Source: Candidatus Methylomirabilis limnetica
GTDB taxonomy: Bacteria > Methylomirabilota > Methylomirabilia > Methylomirabilales > Methylomirabilaceae
NCBI RefSeq assembly: GCF_003044035.1
Contig: NZ_NVQC01000022.1
Coordinates: forward strand, 30,001 to 62,000
Length of the DNA stretch: 32,000 nt
Direction of reading: 5' to 3'
Shown: positions 1,057 to 32,000 of the stretch, piece after piece
Layout: each line of letters opens with the position of its first letter
Position numbering within the stretch: position 1 is the stretch's first letter
Notes under the pieces: generated by a model
Database searches by the model: none
What the model was told of the DNA's origin: nothing
Seen by the model: the letters and a program-made list of their open reading frames with translations, nothing else
Position numbers and translations under genes: made by a program

Positions 1057-4335
<3,279 letters not shown>

Positions 4336-4369: not shown

Positions 4370-4564
4370 TCAAGCGACAGCGTACTCCACGGATTTAGGA
4401 TTCTGGACCCGCTTGGATGCGTTGAGGATTTCCATGCCCACAATGTTCCCGTCCTTGTCGTAGTCCAGAATTACCCCTGGTTTGTCCTGGTCACTCTCCT
4501 CAACCTGTGCGTCACTAAATTCGATTGTGAGTACATCCACTTCTTGGTCATATTTGACCTTCAT
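4370..4564 (-). CDS. DUF2283-family small protein (putative antitoxin-like partner)
   Basis: The reading MKVKYDQEVDVLTIEFSDAQVEESDQDKPGVILDYDKDGNIVGMEILNASKRV matches the DUF2283 pattern (YD.e.D.l.i......v......g.i.d.d..G.i.GiEil.as). GGAGGG precedes the ATG. The ATG at 4564 overlaps the upstream gene's TGA (ATGA overlap). The longer track ORF 4370..4660 has an implausible N-terminal extension. Confidence 0.75.
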   Translation of the reverse strand: MKVKYDQEVDVLTIEFSDAQVEESDQDKPGVILDYDKDGNIVGMEILNASKRVQNPKSVEYAVA

Positions 4565-4818
4565 GGCACCCTCCAGTACTTGCTGATCTTGCTTGTCCGG
4601 TACACGGTGACCACAACGGGGGGATCGACCGTTTCGTTGACCATCACCCGCAAGAGACAAGGCTTTCCCTCGATTTCTACCTGAGATTGATAGCAGGTAA
4701 CGTTGTCCACCTCAGGTACTTTCTGTTCCGGCCCTTGTAAAACCTGCTCCAAGAGCTTTCGCGAAATCTTACGTCTATCTAGTTCCTCATGCAGATGCTT
4801 AGAGTAGTGGAACCTCAC
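4561..4818 (-). CDS. DUF4258-family small protein (putative toxin-like partner)
   Basis: VRFHYSKHLHEELDRRKISRKLLEQVL... fits the DUF4258 N-terminal pattern (i.fs.HA...m..R.I....v..vl). GTG at 4818 has GAGGA about 9 nt upstream. The track start (TTG at 4842, TTGA overlap with the carA stop) is the alternative. Confidence 0.65.
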   Translation of the reverse strand: MRFHYSKHLHEELDRRKISRKLLEQVLQGPEQKVPEVDNVTCYQSQVEIEGKPCLLRVMVNETVDPPVVVTVYRTSKISKYWRVP

Positions 4819-4838
4819 CGTTCTGCATCCTCGATCAA

Positions 4839-6050
4839 TCAACCCTTCGCGCCCTCCCGGTTGCGCTTGCTCGCCATGAGGTCCACGAAGCGCTGAAAGA
4901 GGTAGCTGGCGTCATGGGGACCAGGGGAGGCTTCCGGGTGGTATTGCACCGAAAAGATCGGGAGGCGACGATGTCGCATCCCCTCGACGGTTTGGTCGTT
5001 GAGATTGATGTGGGTCAGCTCGATCTCTTTATCCGGGATCGAGGCGATGTCCAAGGCAAAGCCGTGATTCTGGGTGGTGATCTCCACCTTCCCGGTCGTC
5101 AGATCCTTGACAGGCTGGTTCCCGCCGTGATGACCGAACTTCAGTTTGTAGGTCCGTCCCCCGAGGGCGAGACCCAGGATCTGATGGCCCAAGCAGATGC
5201 CGAAGATCGGCGCGGCGCCAATCAGCTTTTGCACGTTGTCAATCAGATACGGCACGCCCTCCGGGTCGCCGGGGCCATTACTCACGAAGACCCCATCCGG
5301 GGCCAAACCCATGACCGTGGACGCAGGAGTATCCGGAGGAACCACCGTCACGTCGCACCCTGCCTCTACCAACCTCCGCAGGATATTCAACTTGATCCCG
5401 CAGTCGTAGGCCACCACACGGAAGGGTTTATGGGTTAGGGTAGAGGGGTTAGGGAACAGCGCGAGCTGATCTGCCAACTCGAAACTCGAAACTCGAAACT
5501 CGAAACTGCCTTCGTACCCCTTTCCCAATTGCCACGGTCCCTCGCGCCACGTGTAGGGCGAGGTACAGGCCACCTCTTTCACCAAATCGCGACCGATCAG
5601 GCCAGGCGAGGCCTTGGCCTTGGCAATCAGGCTATCTGGGTTCAGGTCTCTTGTTGAGATCACCCCTTCCATCGCCCCATGGTCCCTCAGATGCCTGGTG
5701 AGCGCCCTGGTATCGATCCCCTGAATTCCCACGACGCCCTGCTCTTTAAGGTAGCTGTCAAGGGTCCGAGTGCTGCGCCAATTGCTTGGGTAGGGGCTCG
5801 CCTCCTTCACAATGAACCCCTCCACGGCCGGCACTGTTGACTCGACGTCCTCAGGGTTGATGCCGTAGTTGCCGATCAGAGGATAGGTCATCACGACCAT
5901 CTGGCCCTTGTACGAGGGGTCGGTCAGGACCTCCTGGTATCCGGTCATGCTGGTGTTGAAGACCACCTCACCGACGGTCTCCCCTTCTGCGCCGAAGGAG
6001 ACACCCTCGAAGATGGCGCCATCGGCCAGCGTCAATAACGCCTGCTTCAT
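4839..6050 (-). CDS. carA: Carbamoyl-phosphate synthase small (glutaminase) subunit, with a repeat-derived linker insert
   Basis: 403-aa ORF. N-terminus [47 protein letters not shown]. Class-I GATase motifs are present: [10 protein letters not shown] (catalytic Cys) and [13 protein letters not shown]. Confidence 0.97.
5424..5510. repeat. Heptamer-tandem-repeat element inside the carA CDS
   Basis: On the plus strand: GGGTTTA TGGGTTAG GGTAGAG GGGTTAG GGAACAG, a 16-nt spacer, then (AACTCGA)x4 at 5476-5503 plus partial AACTGCC. On the coding strand this is (GTTTCGA)n ... CCCTAAC-type heptamers, translated as [24 protein letters not shown]. Confidence 0.85.
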
Positions 6051-6068
6051 AAGCGTCCCTTGTCCCCC

Positions 6069-6114
6069 AAATCCCCCCGTGCCCCCCTTTTAGAAAGGGG
6101 GGATGGGGAGATTT
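6069..6114. repeat. C6/G6 palindromic repeat element, copy D, intercistronic between pyrC and carA
   Basis: AAATCCCCCCGTGCCCCCCTTTTAGAAAGGGGGGATGGGGAGATTT, within the 6051-6138 spacer. Confidence 0.85.
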
Positions 6115-6138
6115 CGCATACCGTGCTTCGCACTCTCA

Positions 6139-7482
6139 TCACGCCTCCCAGACCACCTTGCCAGCGACAAGCGTCGCCACAGCCTGCCCCTTAAGCCGCC
6201 AGCCGTGGAAGGGGGTATTGCGGCTTTTCGACACAAAGGCGCCCGCGTCCACCTCCCACTCCCGAGTCGGATCAAAGATCGTCAGATCAGCGTCGGCGCC
6301 TTCGGCAATGCGTCCCTTTGGGAGCTTCAGGATGCGCGCGGGCTCGCTGGTGAACTTCCCCATCGCCTGCGAGAGTGTGAGTACTCCAGGATGCACCAGG
6401 GTTGTGATCGTCACGGCGAGTGCCGTCTCCAGACCGATCACCCCGAAGGGTGCCTGATCGAACTCCTGCTCTTTCTCCTGGACCGTGTGAGGGGCGTGAT
6501 CTGTCGCGATCACGTCGATGGTTCCGTCTCGCAGGCCCTCGATCAGGGCTTGCCGGTCGGCCTCGGACCGAAGCGGCGGATTCATCTTGGCGTGAGTACT
6601 GAAGCCACGGACCGCCTCCTCCGTGAGCGCCAGGTGATGCGGGGTCACCTCGCAGCTCACCCGGACCCCGCGGGCCTTGGCCTCGCGGATCAGACGTACC
6701 GATTCGGCTGCGCTCACGTGCGCAATGTGGAGTCTCGCGCCAGTCAGCTCCGCCAGGAGGATATCTCGCGCTACCATCACCGCCTCCGAGGCTGAGGGGA
6801 TGCCACGAAGCCCGAGATCGGTCGAGACGAACCCCTCATGGACCACGCCCCTGCCGCTCAGGTGCAGATCCTCACTATGCTGGATAACCGGCAGGTCAAA
6901 CATCGCCGCGTACTCCATGGCCCGCCGCATCAGTTCGGGGCTCATCACCGGCCGACCATCATCGGAGATAGCGACGCAGCCAGCCTCGAATAGCTCTCCG
7001 ATCTCGGCCAGCTCCTCCCCTTTCATCCCCTTCGTGATGGCGCCAACGGGGTACACCCGAACGACCCCCTCGCGCTTGGCCGCGTCAAGGATGAACTCGG
7101 TAACAGCGCGCGTGTCGTTTACCGGGTCGGTGTTCGGCATACAGCAAACCGCCGTAAAACCCCCCCGCGCCGCAGCCATCGTTCCGCTCGCAATGGTCTC
7201 TTTATCCTCACGTCCTGGCTGGCGCAGGTGGACATGCATGTCGATCAACCCCGGACAGACCACCAACCCTGTGGCATCCATCACCCGATCAATGGACTCT
7301 ACTCCTGCTGTCTGGGATCTCGAATTCTTTGATGTCTTCCCGTTTCCCCGGGTGTTAAGAGTGGGTTCTGCCGTGCTCCGGCCTAACCTTATAATCTTCC
7401 CGTCTTCTATGAGGAGATCCAGGATTTCATCGACCGCATTTGCAGGATCGATGACTCGACCACCCTTGATCAGAATCCGCAT
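6139..7482 (-). CDS. pyrC: Dihydroorotase
   Basis: 447-aa ORF. Amidohydrolase metal motifs are present: PGLIDMHVHLRQPG (HxH) and VIATDHAPH. Its position between pyrB and carA fits the operon. Confidence 0.95.
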   Translation of the reverse strand: MRILIKGGRVIDPANAVDEILDLLIEDGKIIRLGRSTAEPTLNTRGNGKTSKNSRSQTAGVESIDRVMDATGLVVCPGLIDMHVHLRQPGREDKETIASGTMAAARGGFTAVCCMPNTDPVNDTRAVTEFILDAAKREGVVRVYPVGAITKGMKGEELAEIGELFEAGCVAISDDGRPVMSPELMRRAMEYAAMFDLPVIQHSEDLHLSGRGVVHEGFVSTDLGLRGIPSASEAVMVARDILLAELTGARLHIAHVSAAESVRLIREAKARGVRVSCEVTPHHLALTEEAVRGFSTHAKMNPPLRSEADRQALIEGLRDGTIDVIATDHAPHTVQEKEQEFDQAPFGVIGLETALAVTITTLVHPGVLTLSQAMGKFTSEPARILKLPKGRIAEGADADLTIFDPTREWEVDAGAFVSKSRNTPFHGWRLKGQAVATLVAGKVVWEA

Positions 7483-7502: not shown

Positions 7503-8432
7503 TTATCCCGCCTGCCCGCCGCCAGCAATGAGGTAGAGCAAGGCCATCCGCACGGCCAGGCCATTTTCCACCTGATTGAGGATCAGCGAATAGGGCCCAT
7601 CGGCGACGTCTGGCGCAATCTCCACGCCCCGATTGATCGGGCCGGGGTGCATGATCAGCACATTAGGCTTTGCAGCCTTCAGCCGTTCTACGGTGAGACC
7701 GAACAGGCGAGAGTACTCTCGCAGCGAGGGAAACAGCCCGGCCTGTTGGCGCTCGACCTGAAGTCTCAGCATCATGATGACGTCGACCTCGGCGATGGCT
7801 CGATCGAGGTTCGTAAAGACCTCAACGCCGAGTCGCTCGACGAAACGGGGAAGCATCGTCCGGGGCCCTGCAACCCGCACCTCCATCCCCATCTTCTGCA
7901 TCCCATGAATGTTGCTCCTGGCGACCCGGCTATGAGTGATGTCGCCGATAATGGCTGCCTTGAGTCCCTCCAGTCGCCCCACCTTCTCCCTGATGGTGAA
8001 GAGGTCGAGCAGGGCCTGGCTGGGATGCTCGTGAGCGCCATCGCCGGCGTTGATGATCGGCGCCGCAAGTCGCTTGGCCAGGAATTCTGCCGCTCCAGCG
8101 GATGGATGGCGGATAACCACGACGTCCGGGTGCATTGCTTGCAGCGTCAGGCCGGTATCCTTCAGACTCTCCCCCTTGGCCACCGAACTGGACGAGATGG
8201 AGATATTGACGACGTCGGCGCTCAGCCACTTGCCTGCGATCTCAAAGGATGTCCGGGTCCGCGTGCTGGGCTCGTAGAAGAGATTGATCAGGGTCTTGCC
8301 GCGCAGGGCCGGCACCTTCTTGATGTCGCGGCGGGCCACCTCCTTCATCGACTCGGCAGTATCCAAGATCAGCCGGATCTCGTCTACCGTCAGCTCCCGC
8401 ATGCTCAACAGATCTTTTCCTGCCAGGCCCAT
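7503..8432 (-). CDS. pyrB: Aspartate carbamoyltransferase catalytic subunit
   Basis: 309-aa ORF with [11 protein letters not shown] (carbamoyl-phosphate binding STRTR), [11 protein letters not shown] and MHPGPINRG motifs. Confidence 0.97.
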
Positions 8433-8443
8433 CGCTTCCTCTC

Positions 8444-9037
<594 letters not shown>

Positions 9038-9573: not shown

Positions 9574-9715
9574 CCCAAGAACAGCGATAGGCTTCGCAAC
9601 TACTCGATTCTTCCCGTCGTTGCGAGTACCCGTAGGGTGCGTGGCAATCTCAGTGCAATAATGCGAGATTGCTTCACTTCGTTCGCAATGACAACTTTCT
9701 ATCGCTGTTCTTGGG
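9574..9715. mobile_element. 142-bp MITE-like palindromic element with 17-bp perfect TIRs and a CCAGA flanking direct repeat
   Basis: The TIRs are CCCAAGAACAGCGATAG (9574-9590) and CTATCGCTGTTCTTGGG (9699-9715). Internal arms are GTCGTTGCGAG...GGCAATCTC and GAGATTGC...CGCAATGAC. It is flanked by CCAGA at 9569-9573 and 9716-9720. It is non-coding. Confidence 0.75.
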
Positions 9716-9727
9716 CCAGAGTGCCAG

Positions 9728-9780
9728 GAAACAGAAGAAAACCGCTGCGGGACTCACCGGACGGTCAGTCCCGCAGCGGT
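9728..9780 (-). terminator. Rho-independent terminator of the 9816..10073 gene
   Basis: Perfect 14-bp stem ACCGCTGCGGGACT / AGTCCCGCAGCGGT (9741-9754 / 9767-9780) with a 12-nt loop. On the minus strand it is followed by UUUUCUUCUGUUUC. It lies 36 nt after the stop codon. Confidence 0.75.
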
Positions 9781-20424: not shown

Positions 20425-20466
20425 GTAACTACTAAGGTGGATAGACCGAAGGCTGAAGGCTGTTAG
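20425..20466. repeat. Solo terminal inverted-repeat copy of the CTGAAGG-heptamer MITE
   Basis: GTAACTACTAAGGTGGATAGACCGAAGGCTGAAGGCTGTTAG aligns with the left TIR of the element at 23216-23376 (GTAACTGCTCAGGTAGATAGACTGAAGGCTGAAGGCTTTTAG). Confidence 0.7.
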
Positions 20467-23215: not shown

Positions 23216-23376
23216 GTAACTGCTCAGGTAGATAGACTGAAGGCTGAAGGCTTTTAGGGGTAAGCCGCGTGATTATTTAAAACCCCGAGAAGGTCTTGAG
23301 GGGCTCGGTTCGTACCCTCTGATATAATTTAGAGCCTTCAGCCTTCAGTCTTCAGCCTAAACACCTGAGTAGTTAC
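23216..23376. mobile_element. 161-bp MITE-like element with about 40-bp TIRs that contain inverted heptamer tandem repeats
   Basis: Left end: GTAACTGCTCAGGTAGATAGA(CTGAAGG)x2CT. Right end: AG(CCTTCAG)x2 TCTTCAG CCTAAACACCTGAGTAGTTAC. CGAATG is present on both flanks (23210-23215 and 23379-23384). It is non-coding and lies between iaaA and the AI-2E gene. Confidence 0.8.
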
Positions 23377-24537: not shown

Positions 24538-24603
24538 CGACAAGACAATGACCTTTCGGGTGTTATTAAAAGTGGTAAGGGATCTCAGGATCTCTCAGCA
24601 GGT

Positions 24604-24642
24604 AAGAGAAAATCAAGCAGGCTTAAGCAACCTAAGCCTGCT
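24604..24642 (-). terminator. Terminator hairpin between convergent genes (better U-tract on the minus strand)
   Basis: 10-bp perfect stem AGCAGGCTTA / TAAGCCTGCT (24616-24625 / 24633-24642) with a 7-nt loop. On the minus strand it is followed by UGAUUUUCUCUU. It lies 26 nt after the RRM gene stop. Confidence 0.6.
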
Positions 24643-24667
24643 CTTCGGAAATTGTGCGCTACCGCGG

Positions 24668-25069
24668 TTAATAGCCGCCCCTGCGACCGCCGCCACCGCC
24701 GCCGCCACCGCCGCCGCTACCGCCGCCGCCGCGATATCCGCCACCGCCGCCGCTGCTGCTACCACCACCACTGCGATATCCGCCACCACCGCCACCACCG
24801 CCACCACTTCGGCGAGGAGCCTGTTCTTTTGCCTCATTGACCGTCAGCGCCCGACCACCAACATCTCGCCCATTCAAGGCCTGGATAGCGGCCTCAGCGT
24901 CGCTCGGACTCTCCATCTCAACGAAGGCAAAGCCCCGGGGTCGTCCAGTATCACGATCTGTAATGATCTTGACATCGGTGACCTTACGATCACCCTCTTC
25001 AAAGAGGGTGCGGAGCGCAGATGCATCCGTATCAAACGGGAGATTACCAACATACACTCGTGTTCCCAT
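24668..25069 (-). CDS. RRM-type RNA-binding protein with glycine/arginine-rich C-terminal tail
   Basis: RNP-2 VYVGNL and RNP-1 RGFAFVEM are present. The tail reads RRSGGGGGGGGGYRSGGGSSSGGGGGYRGGGGSGGGGGGGGGGRRGGY. ATG 25069 is preceded by GGAAGGAG. The track ORF start 25165 adds an unsupported N-terminal extension. Confidence 0.92.
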   Translation of the reverse strand: MGTRVYVGNLPFDTDASALRTLFEEGDRKVTDVKIITDRDTGRPRGFAFVEMESPSDAEAAIQALNGRDVGGRALTVNEAKEQAPRRSGGGGGGGGGYRSGGGSSSGGGGGYRGGGGSGGGGGGGGGGRRGGY

Positions 25070-25188
25070 GCTTTCGAAACTCCTTCCGTCGGCCTGCGGC
25101 CGACTTCTCACGGGTAGTTCGATTAGCGCCATCGCCATGGCCCCGCATTCCATGGCTGGCTTCATCCGCCCGGACCTCCCCGGGGGAC

Positions 25189-29592: not shown

Positions 29593-32000
29593 GTGCATAG
29601 CTTTCGGCAAGTGATAGTGGATGAGATTCTCCCTGCAGTGAGTAAGCCGTCCCGGTACATCGGGATGGAATGGAACGCCATCAAGAAGGACCCCGCCAAC
29701 GCTAAAGTCAAAGTCGCGTTAGCCTTTCCCGATACGTACGAAATCGGCATGTCCCATCTGGGCCTGAAGATCCTGTACCAGATCCTGAACCGGCGGCCGG
29801 AGTTTATGGCGGAGCGGGCCTATGCGCCGTGGGTGGATGCGGAGCGGCTGCTGCGGCAGCAGAGGGTTCCACTCTGCACCATTGAATCCGGCTACAGCCT
29901 GGCGGATTTCGACCTGATTGGCTTCACGCTGCAGTACGAACTCTCCTACACGACGCTCCTGAACATGCTGGACCTGGCCGGTATCCCGCTCCAGAGCGAG
30001 CAGCGCCGCGAAGGGGATCCATTCGTGATCGCGGGTGGTCCTGTCGCCTTCAACCCGGAGCCGATCGCCGACTTTATCGACCTATTCCTGCTCGGCGATG
30101 CGGAGGAAGCGATTATAGAGATCTGCGAAGCGGTCATGCAGTGGAAAGCAACGGGGGGGCCGCGTGAAGAGCTCCTCGAGGCATGGGCCAAGATCGAAGG
30201 CTGCTACGTGCCCGCGCTCCACCAGGGCGAGACGATTCGCAAGCGGACAGCGATCCACCTCGATGGGATCGACTATGGCGCGTTTCTGGTCCCATTCATG
30301 GAGATCGTTCACGACCGCGTCAGTATCGAGGTGATGCGTGGATGTACGCAGGGGTGCCGCTTCTGTCAAGCCGGCTACATCTACCGACCGCTTCGAGAGC
30401 GATCCGCCGAGGAGATCATGCAGATGACCCTGCAGGCAAGACGAGGGACGGGGTATGAAGAGGTCTCGCTAGGCTCGTTGAGCATCGCCGATCTGACCGA
30501 TCTCCCTCATCTTATCCACCCGCTCATGGAGGATCTCTTGCCGGAGAAGATCTCGCTGTCCCTCCCCTCCCTGCGGGTTGAAGCCCTGAACCGTTTTCCG
30601 CAGGTGGCCGAGGAGATCGGACGGGTTCGAAAGACCGGCTTCACCATCGCGCCGGAGGCCGGAAGCCAGCGGCTTAGAAAGGTGATCAATAAGGAGGGGT
30701 TCGACGAGGAACAGATCTTCATGGCCGTGAGGAATGCCGCCAAATCCGGCTGGGAGTCGGTGAAATTCTACTTTATGATTGGGCTCCCGACCGAGACGCA
30801 GACGGACCTGGACGAGATGATTCGCATCACGCGGGAATCGGCGCGGATCGCGCGGGCGGAGTCGGCTCGAGGCTTTGGGCTGACAGTCAGTACCTCCTCG
30901 TTCGTCCCGAAGCCCCACACCCCATTCCAGTGGTACGCACAGGAGCCGATGGATATCCTCAAGGAAAAGCAGGATTTCCTGAAGCGAAAGTTACGAGAGG
31001 CGAAAGTGTCGTACAAGTGGCATCATGTCCAGTCCTCCTTCCTGGAGGCGGTCTTCTCCCTGGGTGACCGCTCACTTGGTCGAGCCATCCTTCGTGGCTA
31101 TGAACTCGGGTGTCGGCTTGACGGCTGGACTGAACATCTGAGGTTCGACCTATGGATGCAGGCCTTCGACGAGACAGGGATCGATCCGAAGGCGATCGCT
31201 AATCGGCCGCGCAATCTGGATGAACCGCTACCGTGGGATCATATCGACATCGGCGTCAACAAGTCGTTCCTACAGCGAGAGTACAAGAAGGCGTTAGAGG
31301 TCCGCGGGACGGCCGATTGTCACACGGCTCCATGCACGGCCTGTGGCGAGATCTGCCAGCCCAACTGGCCAACCTGGGCGGAGAAGGTCGGAATGAAAGT
31401 TTCGGGTCCAGAGTTTCGAGTTTCGAGTTCGACGTGCGTTGTTCCTGGCGCTGAACCCGAAATTCAAAACTCAAAACTCAAAACTTTATATGAAGCGCCC
31501 GTTCAGCGCATCCGGTTTATTTTTCAGAAGATCGGGGTGCTGCGGTATCTTTCGCACCTGGAGTTAATGAAGGCGTTGGGCCGGGCGGTGCGTCGGGCTC
31601 GGATAGCCGTAGCCTACTCCCAGGGGTATAACCCCCAACCAAAACTCGCGTGTGCCATGGCGCTTCCAGTGGGGGTCGAGGGGTGGCAGGAATTGGCGGA
31701 CATCGAGTTGAGCGCGGCCATAGCCCCAGAGGAGTTGGTGGCACGAGTCAATCGGTCCCTGGCACCGGAGCTACACCTGCTCCGAGCCTGGGAGGTTCCA
31801 TTGGCGTCGCCCTCGCTTACACCGTTGGTGCGGGAGCTCAACTATCGAGTCTCATTGCCGTTGGATAGCTCCTCCCAGGAGATCCGAGTGAAGCTCAGCT
31901 CCCAGGCGCTCTGCAATGAGTGGCTCGATCGGCCAAGCATCCCGGTCCGCGTCAGGCGAAAGGATAGGCTCGTGGATGTCGATGTCCGGCCGCAGATCCT
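29593..32000 (+). CDS. B12-binding-domain radical SAM protein (TIGR03960-like) fused to a DUF2344/TIGR03936-like domain; 3' end beyond the window
   Basis: This ORF is not in the supplied ORF track. I translated frame 1 by hand and found it open from the TGA at 29590 to the window end. GTG 29593 has AAGGAG 8 nt upstream. The sequence reads ...LPAVSKPSRYIGMEWNAIKKD..., with radical-SAM cluster motif RGCTQGCRFCQAG, then ...PKPHTPFQW... The DUF2344-like part is RIRFIFQKIGVLRYLSHLELMKALGRAVRRARIAVAYSQGYNPQPK. Confidence 0.85.
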   Translation, partial: MHSFRQVIVDEILPAVSKPSRYIGMEWNAIKKDPANAKVKVALAFPDTYEIGMSHLGLKILYQILNRRPEFMAERAYAPWVDAERLLRQQRVPLCTIESGYSLADFDLIGFTLQYELSYTTLLNMLDLAGIPLQSEQRREGDPFVIAGGPVAFNPEPIADFIDLFLLGDAEEAIIEICEAVMQWKATGGPREELLEAWAKIEGCYVPALHQGETIRKRTAIHLDGIDYGAFLVPFMEIVHDRVSIEVMRGCTQGCRFCQAGYIYRPLRERSAEEIMQMTLQARRGTGYEEVSLGSLSIADLTDLPHLIHPLMEDLLPEKISLSLPSLRVEALNRFPQVAEEIGRVRKTGFTIAPEAGSQRLRKVINKEGFDEEQIFMAVRNAAKSGWESVKFYFMIGLPTETQTDLDEMIRITRESARIARAESARGFGLTVSTSSFVPKPHTPFQWYAQEPMDILKEKQDFLKRKLREAKVSYKWHHVQSSFLEAVFSLGDRSLGRAILRGYELGCRLDGWTEHLRFDLWMQAFDETGIDPKAIANRPRNLDEPLPWDHIDIGVNKSFLQREYKKALEVRGTADCHTAPCTACGEICQPNWPTWAEKVGMKVSGPEFRVSSSTCVVPGAEPEIQNSKLKTLYEAPVQRIRFIFQKIGVLRYLSHLELMKALGRAVRRARIAVAYSQGYNPQPKLACAMALPVGVEGWQELADIELSAAIAPEELVARVNRSLAPELHLLRAWEVPLASPSLTPLVRELNYRVSLPLDSSSQEIRVKLSSQALCNEWLDRPSIPVRVRRKDRLVDVDVRPQI
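31396..31487. repeat. Heptamer-tandem-repeat hairpin element inside the radical-SAM CDS (domain linker)
   Basis: (GAGTTTC)x2 GAGTTCG at 31411-31431, a 32-nt spacer, then (TCAAAAC)x3 at 31464-31484. The reverse complement of the second array is GTTTTGA-type, so the two arrays form imperfect inverted repeats. It is translated as SGPEFRVSSSTCVVPGAEPEIQNSKLKTL. Confidence 0.8.

Follow-up and report, generated by a model that had tools for sequence, protein, structure and literature searches.

The carA gene of Candidatus Methylomirabilis limnetica lies in a 32,000-nucleotide stretch of contig NZ_NVQC01000022.1 (positions 30,001-62,000; hereafter the window, with position 1 its first letter). It carries two in-frame arrays of heptanucleotide repeats between the two domains of its product, the small subunit of glutamine-hydrolysing carbamoyl-phosphate synthase. 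The best explanation, to which we give a probability of about 0.6, is that this feature is an old, translated quasi-palindrome of heptamers, resembling the short tandemly repeated repetitive (STRR) sequences of cyanobacteria and set in a permissive inter-domain linker. Its arms would be renewed by slippage and conversion, by recombination and by templating of one arm on the other, and its centre would have been captured as a conserved peptide. Essential genes normally lose repeats with a unit length not divisible by three, or employ them as on/off switches; heptamer arrays persist here in frame in CarA, CarB, PyrC, PyrK, MqnC-like proteins and a radical-SAM fusion, across the phylum and beyond it.

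The host gene (4839-6050, minus strand) is a 403-aa open reading frame (ORF) that matches the E. coli CarA chains in the PDB with E = 1e-116. A gene identical to it (locus L161) contains the Pfam domains CPSase_sm_chain and GATase, and the closest homologues of the protein are from Candidatus Methylomirabilis and other NC10 bacteria (Methylomirabilota). In the sense of the mRNA, the 5' arm is a perfect (GAGTTTC)x4.6 array on the minus strand at 5476-5507, encoding FEFRVSSFE and belonging to the H1 type described below; it was located by Tandem Repeats Finder, by script and by alignments. The initial annotation of this DNA, made from the letters, had noted four perfect copies of AACTCGA here, and Tandem Repeats Finder extends them to a period-7 array of 4.6 copies with 100% matches (unit AACTCGA on the plus strand). 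No other perfect period-7 run in the window is as long, and the array is identical in the closest relative, L081. A scan of the window for arrays (4-unit windows, self-match of at least 75%) gave four hits for period 7 and none for periods 5, 6, 8, 10 or 11.

The 3' arm, at 5424-5453 on the minus strand, is a degenerate array of the CCCTNNA type (R-A below). It reads CCTAACC CCTCTAC CCTAACC CATAAAC CC, or GGGTTTA TGGGTTA GGGTAGA GGGGTTA GG on the plus strand, with a period-7 self-match of 62% over 28 nt, and is almost identical to the right arms of L085, L087 and L082. An array of GGGTTAG-like heptamers had been drawn here from 5424 to 5460; the array is real, if degenerate, but it stops at 5453. 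The bases at 5454-5468 (minus strand) belong to the centre, CAG CTC GCG CTG TTC, which encodes Q-L-A-L-F (residues 195-199), a peptide conserved across the clade. As read from the 403-aa minus-strand ORF, both arrays are in frame in carA and translated, in agreement with the annotation. That the repeat might be an assembly artefact had been raised as well. Gene calls on 4 long contigs give exactly this CarA protein, coverage of the source contig (ENA ERZ4201064 NODE_16, 242 kb) is about 370x, and the perfect array of 32 nt is shorter than one sequencing read; the repeat is therefore not an artefact of assembly.

Alignment to solved E. coli CarA (phmmer, chains 1cs0_B and 1bxr_B) pairs query residues 2-178 with residues 3-180 of the chain and query residues 206-396 with residues 188-378. 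Here 27 residues (179-205; 5436-5516, minus strand) stand in for 7 of E. coli CarA in the loop that joins the N-terminal domain to the glutaminase domain, which confirms and delimits the insertion that had been suspected. Taken from W....W to VVAYDxGxK, linker length is 53 aa in the window CarA, 51-75 aa in Methylomirabilis-type carA as a whole and 52-54 aa at the level of the genus; linkers of 30 aa are found in many other phyla and in a Rokubacteria-like group with the motif YDCGIK. All of the 120 best CarA homologues, down to 68% identity, have the enlarged linker. The carA DNA sample comprised at least 80 species genomes among the matches listed, mostly from other phyla, and 80 metagenome contigs; the genomes of other phyla served as outgroups, and few Methylomirabilis genomes were among them. 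The frame is open through the linker in 80 of 80 metagenome loci, and none of the copies examined is out of frame or interrupted by a stop codon. No empty insertion site was found inside the clade, the 30-aa linkers being confined to the separate Rokubacteria-like lineage. All long linkers are built alike, with a heptamer array to the left of a short centre and another array to its right. Judged by this distribution, the insert is old, ancestral to Methylomirabilis-type CarA, and not a recent event. The annotation had regarded it as an inserted element that happens to read through, a description that does not fit its presence in 120 of 120 homologues, its single period-7 phase and its conserved peptide centre.

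The insert probably occupies a surface loop, an exposed linker between the domains of CarA, and the site would tolerate turnover of the cassette because it is exposed. The AlphaFold2 model, which is poor as a whole (mean pLDDT, the predicted local distance difference test, of 66.6), has pLDDT below 50 for residues 181-206 and weakly suggests that the insert is disordered. Other phyla have different tandem inserts at the same CarA linker, which supports a permissive site. The Nitrospira locus L058 has a period-8 array there, CCGAACTT x4 opposite GGAAGCGC-like units, L063 has telomere-like CCCTAAA arrays, L065 has CTCATCA x4 and L009 has GTTCCAC x4. L077, from the set of Nitrospirota and other phyla, also has repeats of its own, and the linker of one relative, L149, holds a C/G palindrome, which resembles the C6/G6 type described below.

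The arms are built of units that vary by lineage, among them AGTTTCG, GGTTCAA, GGGTCTA, GTTCAAC, AGTTCCA, AGTGCCA, GAGAGCC, GAGCCGC, GAGCCAC and GGGGGCA. In an alignment of 20 genus-level sequences the arms all share one period-7 phase, with invariant columns of G and T in the left arm and A and C in the right arm. The arms are therefore homologous and evolved in place, and are not independent insertions. The flanks of the window carA are 91-99% identical in nucleotide sequence to those of L081, L083 and L085, and the cassettes of these relatives differ wholesale, with left units of AGTTTCG or GGGTCTA and right units that are CCCTNNA or GAAACTC-like. Two left haplotypes can be told apart, H1 with RGTTYNN units and then ...GGCAGAYCAGCTC, and H2 with CAGGGTC-type units and then ...CAAYTG. 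The right arms are mainly of two types, R-A (CCCTNNA) and R-B (GGAACCC). The complementary combinations are H2 with R-A, as in L083 and L085, and H1 with R-B; the window carA combines H1 with R-A and is mismatched. L081 has the exact left arm of the window, and its right arm, CC GAAACCC AAAACCC GGAACTC GAAACTG, is a mosaic, in part ancestral R-A arm and in part a perfect complement of the left arm newly acquired.

H1 and H2 are interleaved on the tree built from flanking sequence, and together with the mixed combinations this is read as recombination between alleles within the conserved centre. No copy-number variants were seen, the window and L081 both having 4.6 copies. On these comparisons the arm unit, and hence the arm peptide, turns over very fast, with left and right types shuffled among close relatives. 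The view that the repeat exists at the level of DNA and not of protein, already put forward in the initial annotation, is upheld by period-7 copies that are perfect while the peptides of close relatives differ completely. The converse pattern, the same linker peptide encoded by non-repetitive DNA, was not found; relatives have other arm peptides and other units.

Pairing registers differ between haplotypes, and complementarity was therefore measured as the energy of the arm-arm duplex against a shuffled right arm. An earlier matrix of cognate and non-cognate duplexes did not serve as a test, since differences in arm length and GC content confounded it. The z score of the duplex is below -2 in 32 of 53 inserts, and the consensus units pair at six or more of seven positions in 26 of 53 cognate pairs, as against 25% of non-cognate pairs. 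The arms of L081 are strongly complementary (z = -6.2) and those of the window are not (z = 0.1), nor are those of the M. oxyfera-like L082 and L086 or of L095. The strongest hairpins are those of L136 (-102 kcal/mol) and L002 (-87 kcal/mol), and matched arms occur in at least six unit families. On these energies the left and right arrays are the arms of a quasi-palindrome whose complementarity is frequent but dispensable.

The centre differs from the arms in being constant. Of 56 distinct long-linker loci, 53 match Q[LM]x[LIM]F there, and in an alignment of 90 CarA proteins that were not selected on the motif Q195, L196, L198 and F199 are each at least 90% conserved in variable surroundings. 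Codons and residues were tallied in 53 distinct sequences chosen by motif match, in which Q, L/M, L/I and F accordingly number 53 each. Gln is encoded by CAG in 28 and CAA in 25, the first Leu by CTC, TTG, TTA, CTG and CTT, and Phe by TTC in 39 and TTT in 14. The positions flanking the centre are hypervariable (entropy 2.1-3.3 bits), and position x is most often occupied by S (15) or D (14). Synonymous codons vary at a constant peptide, and the conservation is therefore at the peptide level; by this codon pattern the centre is under purifying selection as a peptide.

Heptamer arrays are not confined to the carA linker. A census of 2.0 Mb of fetched DNA around carA found 141 period-7 arrays, as against 3-29 for each of periods 5, 6 and 8-11, and 54 of the 141 are in carA linkers. 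Among distinct arrays outside these linkers, 53 of 76 (70%) lie well inside long ORFs, compared with 80% of random positions, and arrays are therefore hardly excluded from genes; 28 of the 76 have a complementary partner within 110 nt. The 141 arrays fall into 75 unit classes of about 1,170 possible, and classes recur at non-orthologous genes and in different genomes, for example GTGCGAG in pyrC and pyrK and CGGGGTG in carB, carA and pyrK. By Pfam, arrays lie in frame between domains in carB (around residue 417, at 473-527 and at 554-584), in pyrC (around residues 57-69), in pyrK (three sites) and in two MqnC/CofH-like radical-SAM genes of a Nitrospira contig. At residues 554-584 of the L058 carB, (CAGGGGT) x7.4 is followed by (AACTCCG) x4.5, in frame between domains. 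In-frame heptamer arrays in housekeeping genes are a wider habit of these genomes, in several phyla, which the initial annotation had missed, as it had the quasi-palindromic relation of the two carA arrays and the mismatch of their arms in the window.

The window itself has three heptamer loci in 32 kb, two with the same unit and two of the three in frame in genes. The second in-frame locus, at 31405-31485 on the plus strand, consists of (GAGTTTC)x2.7, 34 nt and (AAACTCA)x3.7 (Tandem Repeats Finder and sequence), and its arms are complementary (z = -3.7 and -4.0). It has the same unit as the 5' arm of carA and lies in frame at the junction of a fusion ORF (29593-32000, plus strand; 802 codons, running off the window) that joins radical-SAM (PF19864, PF04055) and DUF2344 (PF10105) domains. 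The peptide at this junction is encoded by the heptamer hairpin, and it suggests that an array with no stop codon in any frame could assist the change from an intergenic spacer to the linker of a fusion.

In many prokaryotes no long simple repeats are commoner than those of seven nucleotides, and in cyanobacteria these form the STRR families; they are described mainly as intergenic, and published descriptions have them under-represented on the coding strand. The likeness to STRR sequences pointed out at the outset is apt, given the predominance of period 7 and the return of the carA unit at 31411-31429. As with STRR sequences and other heptanucleotide repeats, there are few tandem copies, and arrays are often inverted pairs able to form stem-loops; the window and the fetched loci also suggest several unit families per genome. 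GGGAATC arrays in Xanthomonas likewise form convergent inverted pairs (PMC4692102), and TAACTGA repeats are found in Beggiatoaceae (PMC4679880). Unlike STRR sequences, the present arrays are in NC10 bacteria (and in Nitrospirota, Omnitrophota and others), not in cyanobacteria. The units in the window are GAGTTTC, CCCTAAC and CTGAAGG, which differ from the canonical STRR units. The arrays are also about as frequent in frame within essential genes as would be expected if they were placed by chance, they recur at orthologous protein sites throughout a clade, and the carA copy has a conserved central peptide. No description of heptamer repeats or palindromes in coding regions of Methylomirabilis, NC10 or Nitrospirota was found in the literature, of which our coverage is incomplete. 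The carA insert appears to combine features of known kinds, being STRR-like, in frame, dimorphic and recombining, with a conserved peptide.

In the proposed mechanism, the arms would be DNA-level repeats homogenised by slipped-strand events and by conversion within the array, and would be swapped between alleles by recombination inside the conserved centre. Intrastrand template switching would draw them back to complementarity, and the right arm of L081 may have been caught partly converted. Quasi-palindrome correction of this Ripley type is known from reporter assays on short quasi-palindromes. It would explain clustered changes that bring one arm into complementarity with the other, such as those of the L081 right arm relative to the ancestral CCCTNNA type; it is not known as a long-term evolutionary force that shapes the arms of heptamer arrays within genes. 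Selection would merely act as a filter for a length that is a multiple of three, the absence of stop codons and a tolerable, flexible peptide. The arms would thus serve as a flexible and variable spacer presenting the conserved QLxLF peptide. The same process may fill the inter-domain loops of carB, pyrC, pyrK and the MqnC-like genes, and the radical-SAM/DUF2344 junction.

Several points weigh against this mechanism. Slippage, conversion and template switching are drawn from patterns among a few close relatives, and the census covers DNA around carA. A slip of one unit would frameshift the essential carA gene, which leaves the homogeneity of the units under that constraint unexplained, and no copy-number variant separates the window from L081. 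The survival of near-perfect arrays throughout the clade could mean that the arrays themselves are selected, and the strong association of left and right arm types could come from selection for a hairpin and not from mutational bias.

It is possible, if unlikely, that the hairpin itself is what selection maintains, as a structured element of mRNA or single-stranded DNA whose arms co-evolve by compensatory changes. Such an element might pause the ribosome between the CarA domains, act as an RNase site or stabiliser, or be bound by a heptamer-reading protein. Complementarity is far commoner in cognate arms than in shuffled or non-cognate ones, six or more unit families have matched arms, the right arm of L081 is shifting to the complement of its new left arm, and inserts stand at domain boundaries in several genes, all of which agree with a selected hairpin. 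Against it, the arms are mismatched in the intact carA genes of the window, L082, L086 and L095, and of 76 arrays elsewhere no more than 28 have a complementary partner. Pairing does not favour the mRNA strand; folds of the antisense strand have a slight edge in stability (Wilcoxon p = 0.02, on sequences that are not independent) and have more G-U pairs (266 versus 180 on the mRNA strand), and there is thus no sign of selection for mRNA structure. RNAalifold found no consensus structure in 20 aligned relatives, and Rfam gave no match in the whole window at gathering thresholds. As a separate observation, mismatches between the arms, in the 53 carA linkers and at 31405-31485, tend to be A-C on the coding strand and so G-U on the antisense strand.

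Selection could instead act on the arms as protein, a heptad-like, flexible or charged spacer of set length, with the periodicity of the DNA secondary; we regard this as improbable. The tight linker length within the genus, the clear selection on the centre as a peptide and the predicted disorder of the insert all agree with a spacer. The arm peptides of close relatives, for example SSKFQVPSSKS, have nothing in common, and the DNA units are perfect and in phase. A 7-nt period also runs through each of the three frames in turn, and repeats of peptides do not arise in that way; the same DNA units occur in other genes and in intergenic DNA.

A recent mobile insertion, like a MITE (a small transposable element with inverted repeats) or a repetitive extragenic palindromic (REP) sequence, that reads through by chance is largely refuted and very unlikely. 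The inverted-repeat architecture of the relatives, the unit common to carA and 31405-31485, and a dispersed palindrome family in frame in pyrK of the window and pyrC of L083 speak for it. Methylomirabilis-type CarA, however, has the insert without exception, at one site and in one period-7 phase, the clade has no empty site, and what is conserved at the centre is a peptide and not a DNA sequence. A known parallel is with the Rickettsia palindromic elements (RPEs) and some MITEs, in which palindromic DNA is translated in frame as an extra peptide of unrelated metabolic enzymes; RPEs are about 150 bp long, with a conserved sequence and encoded peptide per family and presence/absence polymorphism (PMC10969869). 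The carA insert is likewise repeat DNA translated at a position compatible with the fold, with the frame kept; its arms are complementary in 32 of 53 relatives and not in the window. Unlike these elements, it has only its 7-nt unit in common with other loci, and its arms turn over. No near-identical full-length copy was found in the window or the fetched loci, the centre of 31405-31485 being unrelated, and no presence/absence polymorphism was seen among the 120 homologues and the Methylomirabilis-type loci.

A contingency locus, in which non-triplet slippage would toggle carA on and off, is suggested by the classic architecture of a perfect, non-multiple-of-three repeat in coding sequence, but it is extremely improbable for a core biosynthetic gene with none of 80 loci disrupted in frame, equal copy numbers in the window and L081, the same protein on 4 contigs and a QLxLF kept in frame downstream of the array.

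The conserved centre resembles the motif by which proteins bind the beta-sliding clamp, Q-phi-x-[L/M]-[F/L], of which QLxLF is the highest-affinity consensus, and which is usually found in disordered segments (PMC11139829). QLALF of the window fits this consensus, and Q-[L/M]-x-[L/I]-F is present in essentially all members of the clade. The preference for S and D at x recalls the classical QL[SD]LF, and the CarA centre stands in a variable region that is weakly predicted to be disordered. CarA, a metabolic enzyme, is not known to be connected with the clamp, and a five-residue match may be coincidence; QLxLF could alternatively serve another partner or an intramolecular contact. We consider it possible, but unlikely, that this is a genuine clamp-binding motif held on a disordered tether of translated heptamer-repeat DNA. 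If it does bind the clamp, carbamoyl-phosphate synthetase, which supplies precursors of pyrimidines and arginine, would be physically tied to the replisome or to clamp-loaded DNA, an unexpected connection of nucleotide-precursor synthesis with replication.

On this same, unlikely reading, translated heptamer quasi-palindromes in inter-domain loops would in general be an undescribed, multi-phylum source of disordered linkers and short linear motifs in housekeeping enzymes. The arrays also offer a testable route from selfish or mutationally driven repeats to such linkers, to new motifs and possibly to gene fusions. The arrays may serve as hypervariable strain markers inside conserved genes of the methane-oxidising NC10 bacteria, and segments that contain them can mislead alignments, phylogenies and structure prediction.

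carA is part of a pyrimidine gene cluster on the minus strand that includes pyrR (8444-9025), pyrB (7503-8432), pyrC (6139-7482), carB (1057-4335) and pyrK (2-967). Between carA and carB is a pair of genes with DUF4258 and DUF2283 domains (4370-4842, minus strand); these ORFs are small and overlapping, and look like a toxin-antitoxin pair.

The third heptamer locus of the window, found by repeat search, is at 23216-23376, where inverted arms of 37 nt, ending in (CTGAAGG)n and (AGCCTTC)n, are separated by 87 nt. The locus has no assigned strand and is intergenic, between genes for an asparaginase and an AI-2E transporter (Pfam). The 37-nt arm (GTAACTGCTCAGGTAGATAGACTGAAGGCTGAAGGCT) has a solo copy at 20426-20462, with 33 of 37 bases the same, and both loci end 20-60 nt upstream of a gene start, the genes being those of a TPR protein and an AI-2E transporter. 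The arm may be a small dispersed element of 5' untranslated regions with a heptamer array at its inner end. No further copies were found in the fetched loci.

A second and unrelated repeat family in the window consists of C6/G6 palindromes, AAAnCCCCCCnnnCCCCCCTTTnnnAAAGGGGGGnnnGGGGGGATTT, that fold at -32 to -51 kcal/mol. Two of these, at 725-771 and 241-286, are in frame in PyrK (minus strand), as KTPPNPPLSKGGTGGF (residues 66-81) and PKSASSPLYKRGVGGIY (residues 228-243), and two are in spacers, pyrK-carB (973-1019) and pyrC-carA (6065-6120). The PyrK sites of the palindromes are those at which other lineages have heptamer arrays. Copies are also present in L081, L083/L084 and L118, with one in frame in PyrC of L083. 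By analogy, this family, translated in frame in metabolic enzymes, looks like the true counterpart of the Rickettsia RPEs.

The window also has other repeats. A long, imperfect CCG/CCA-rich repeat at 24674-24807, with periods of 3, 9, 12, 24 and 42, is in overlapping ORFs at 24548-25165 and probably encodes a low-complexity segment rich in Pro and Gly. The poorly coding stretch between pyrR and a DNA ligase gene has a perfect 17-nt inverted repeat (9574-9590 and 9699-9715, arms 108 nt apart), and a 19-bp hairpin (9741-9780) adjoins it.

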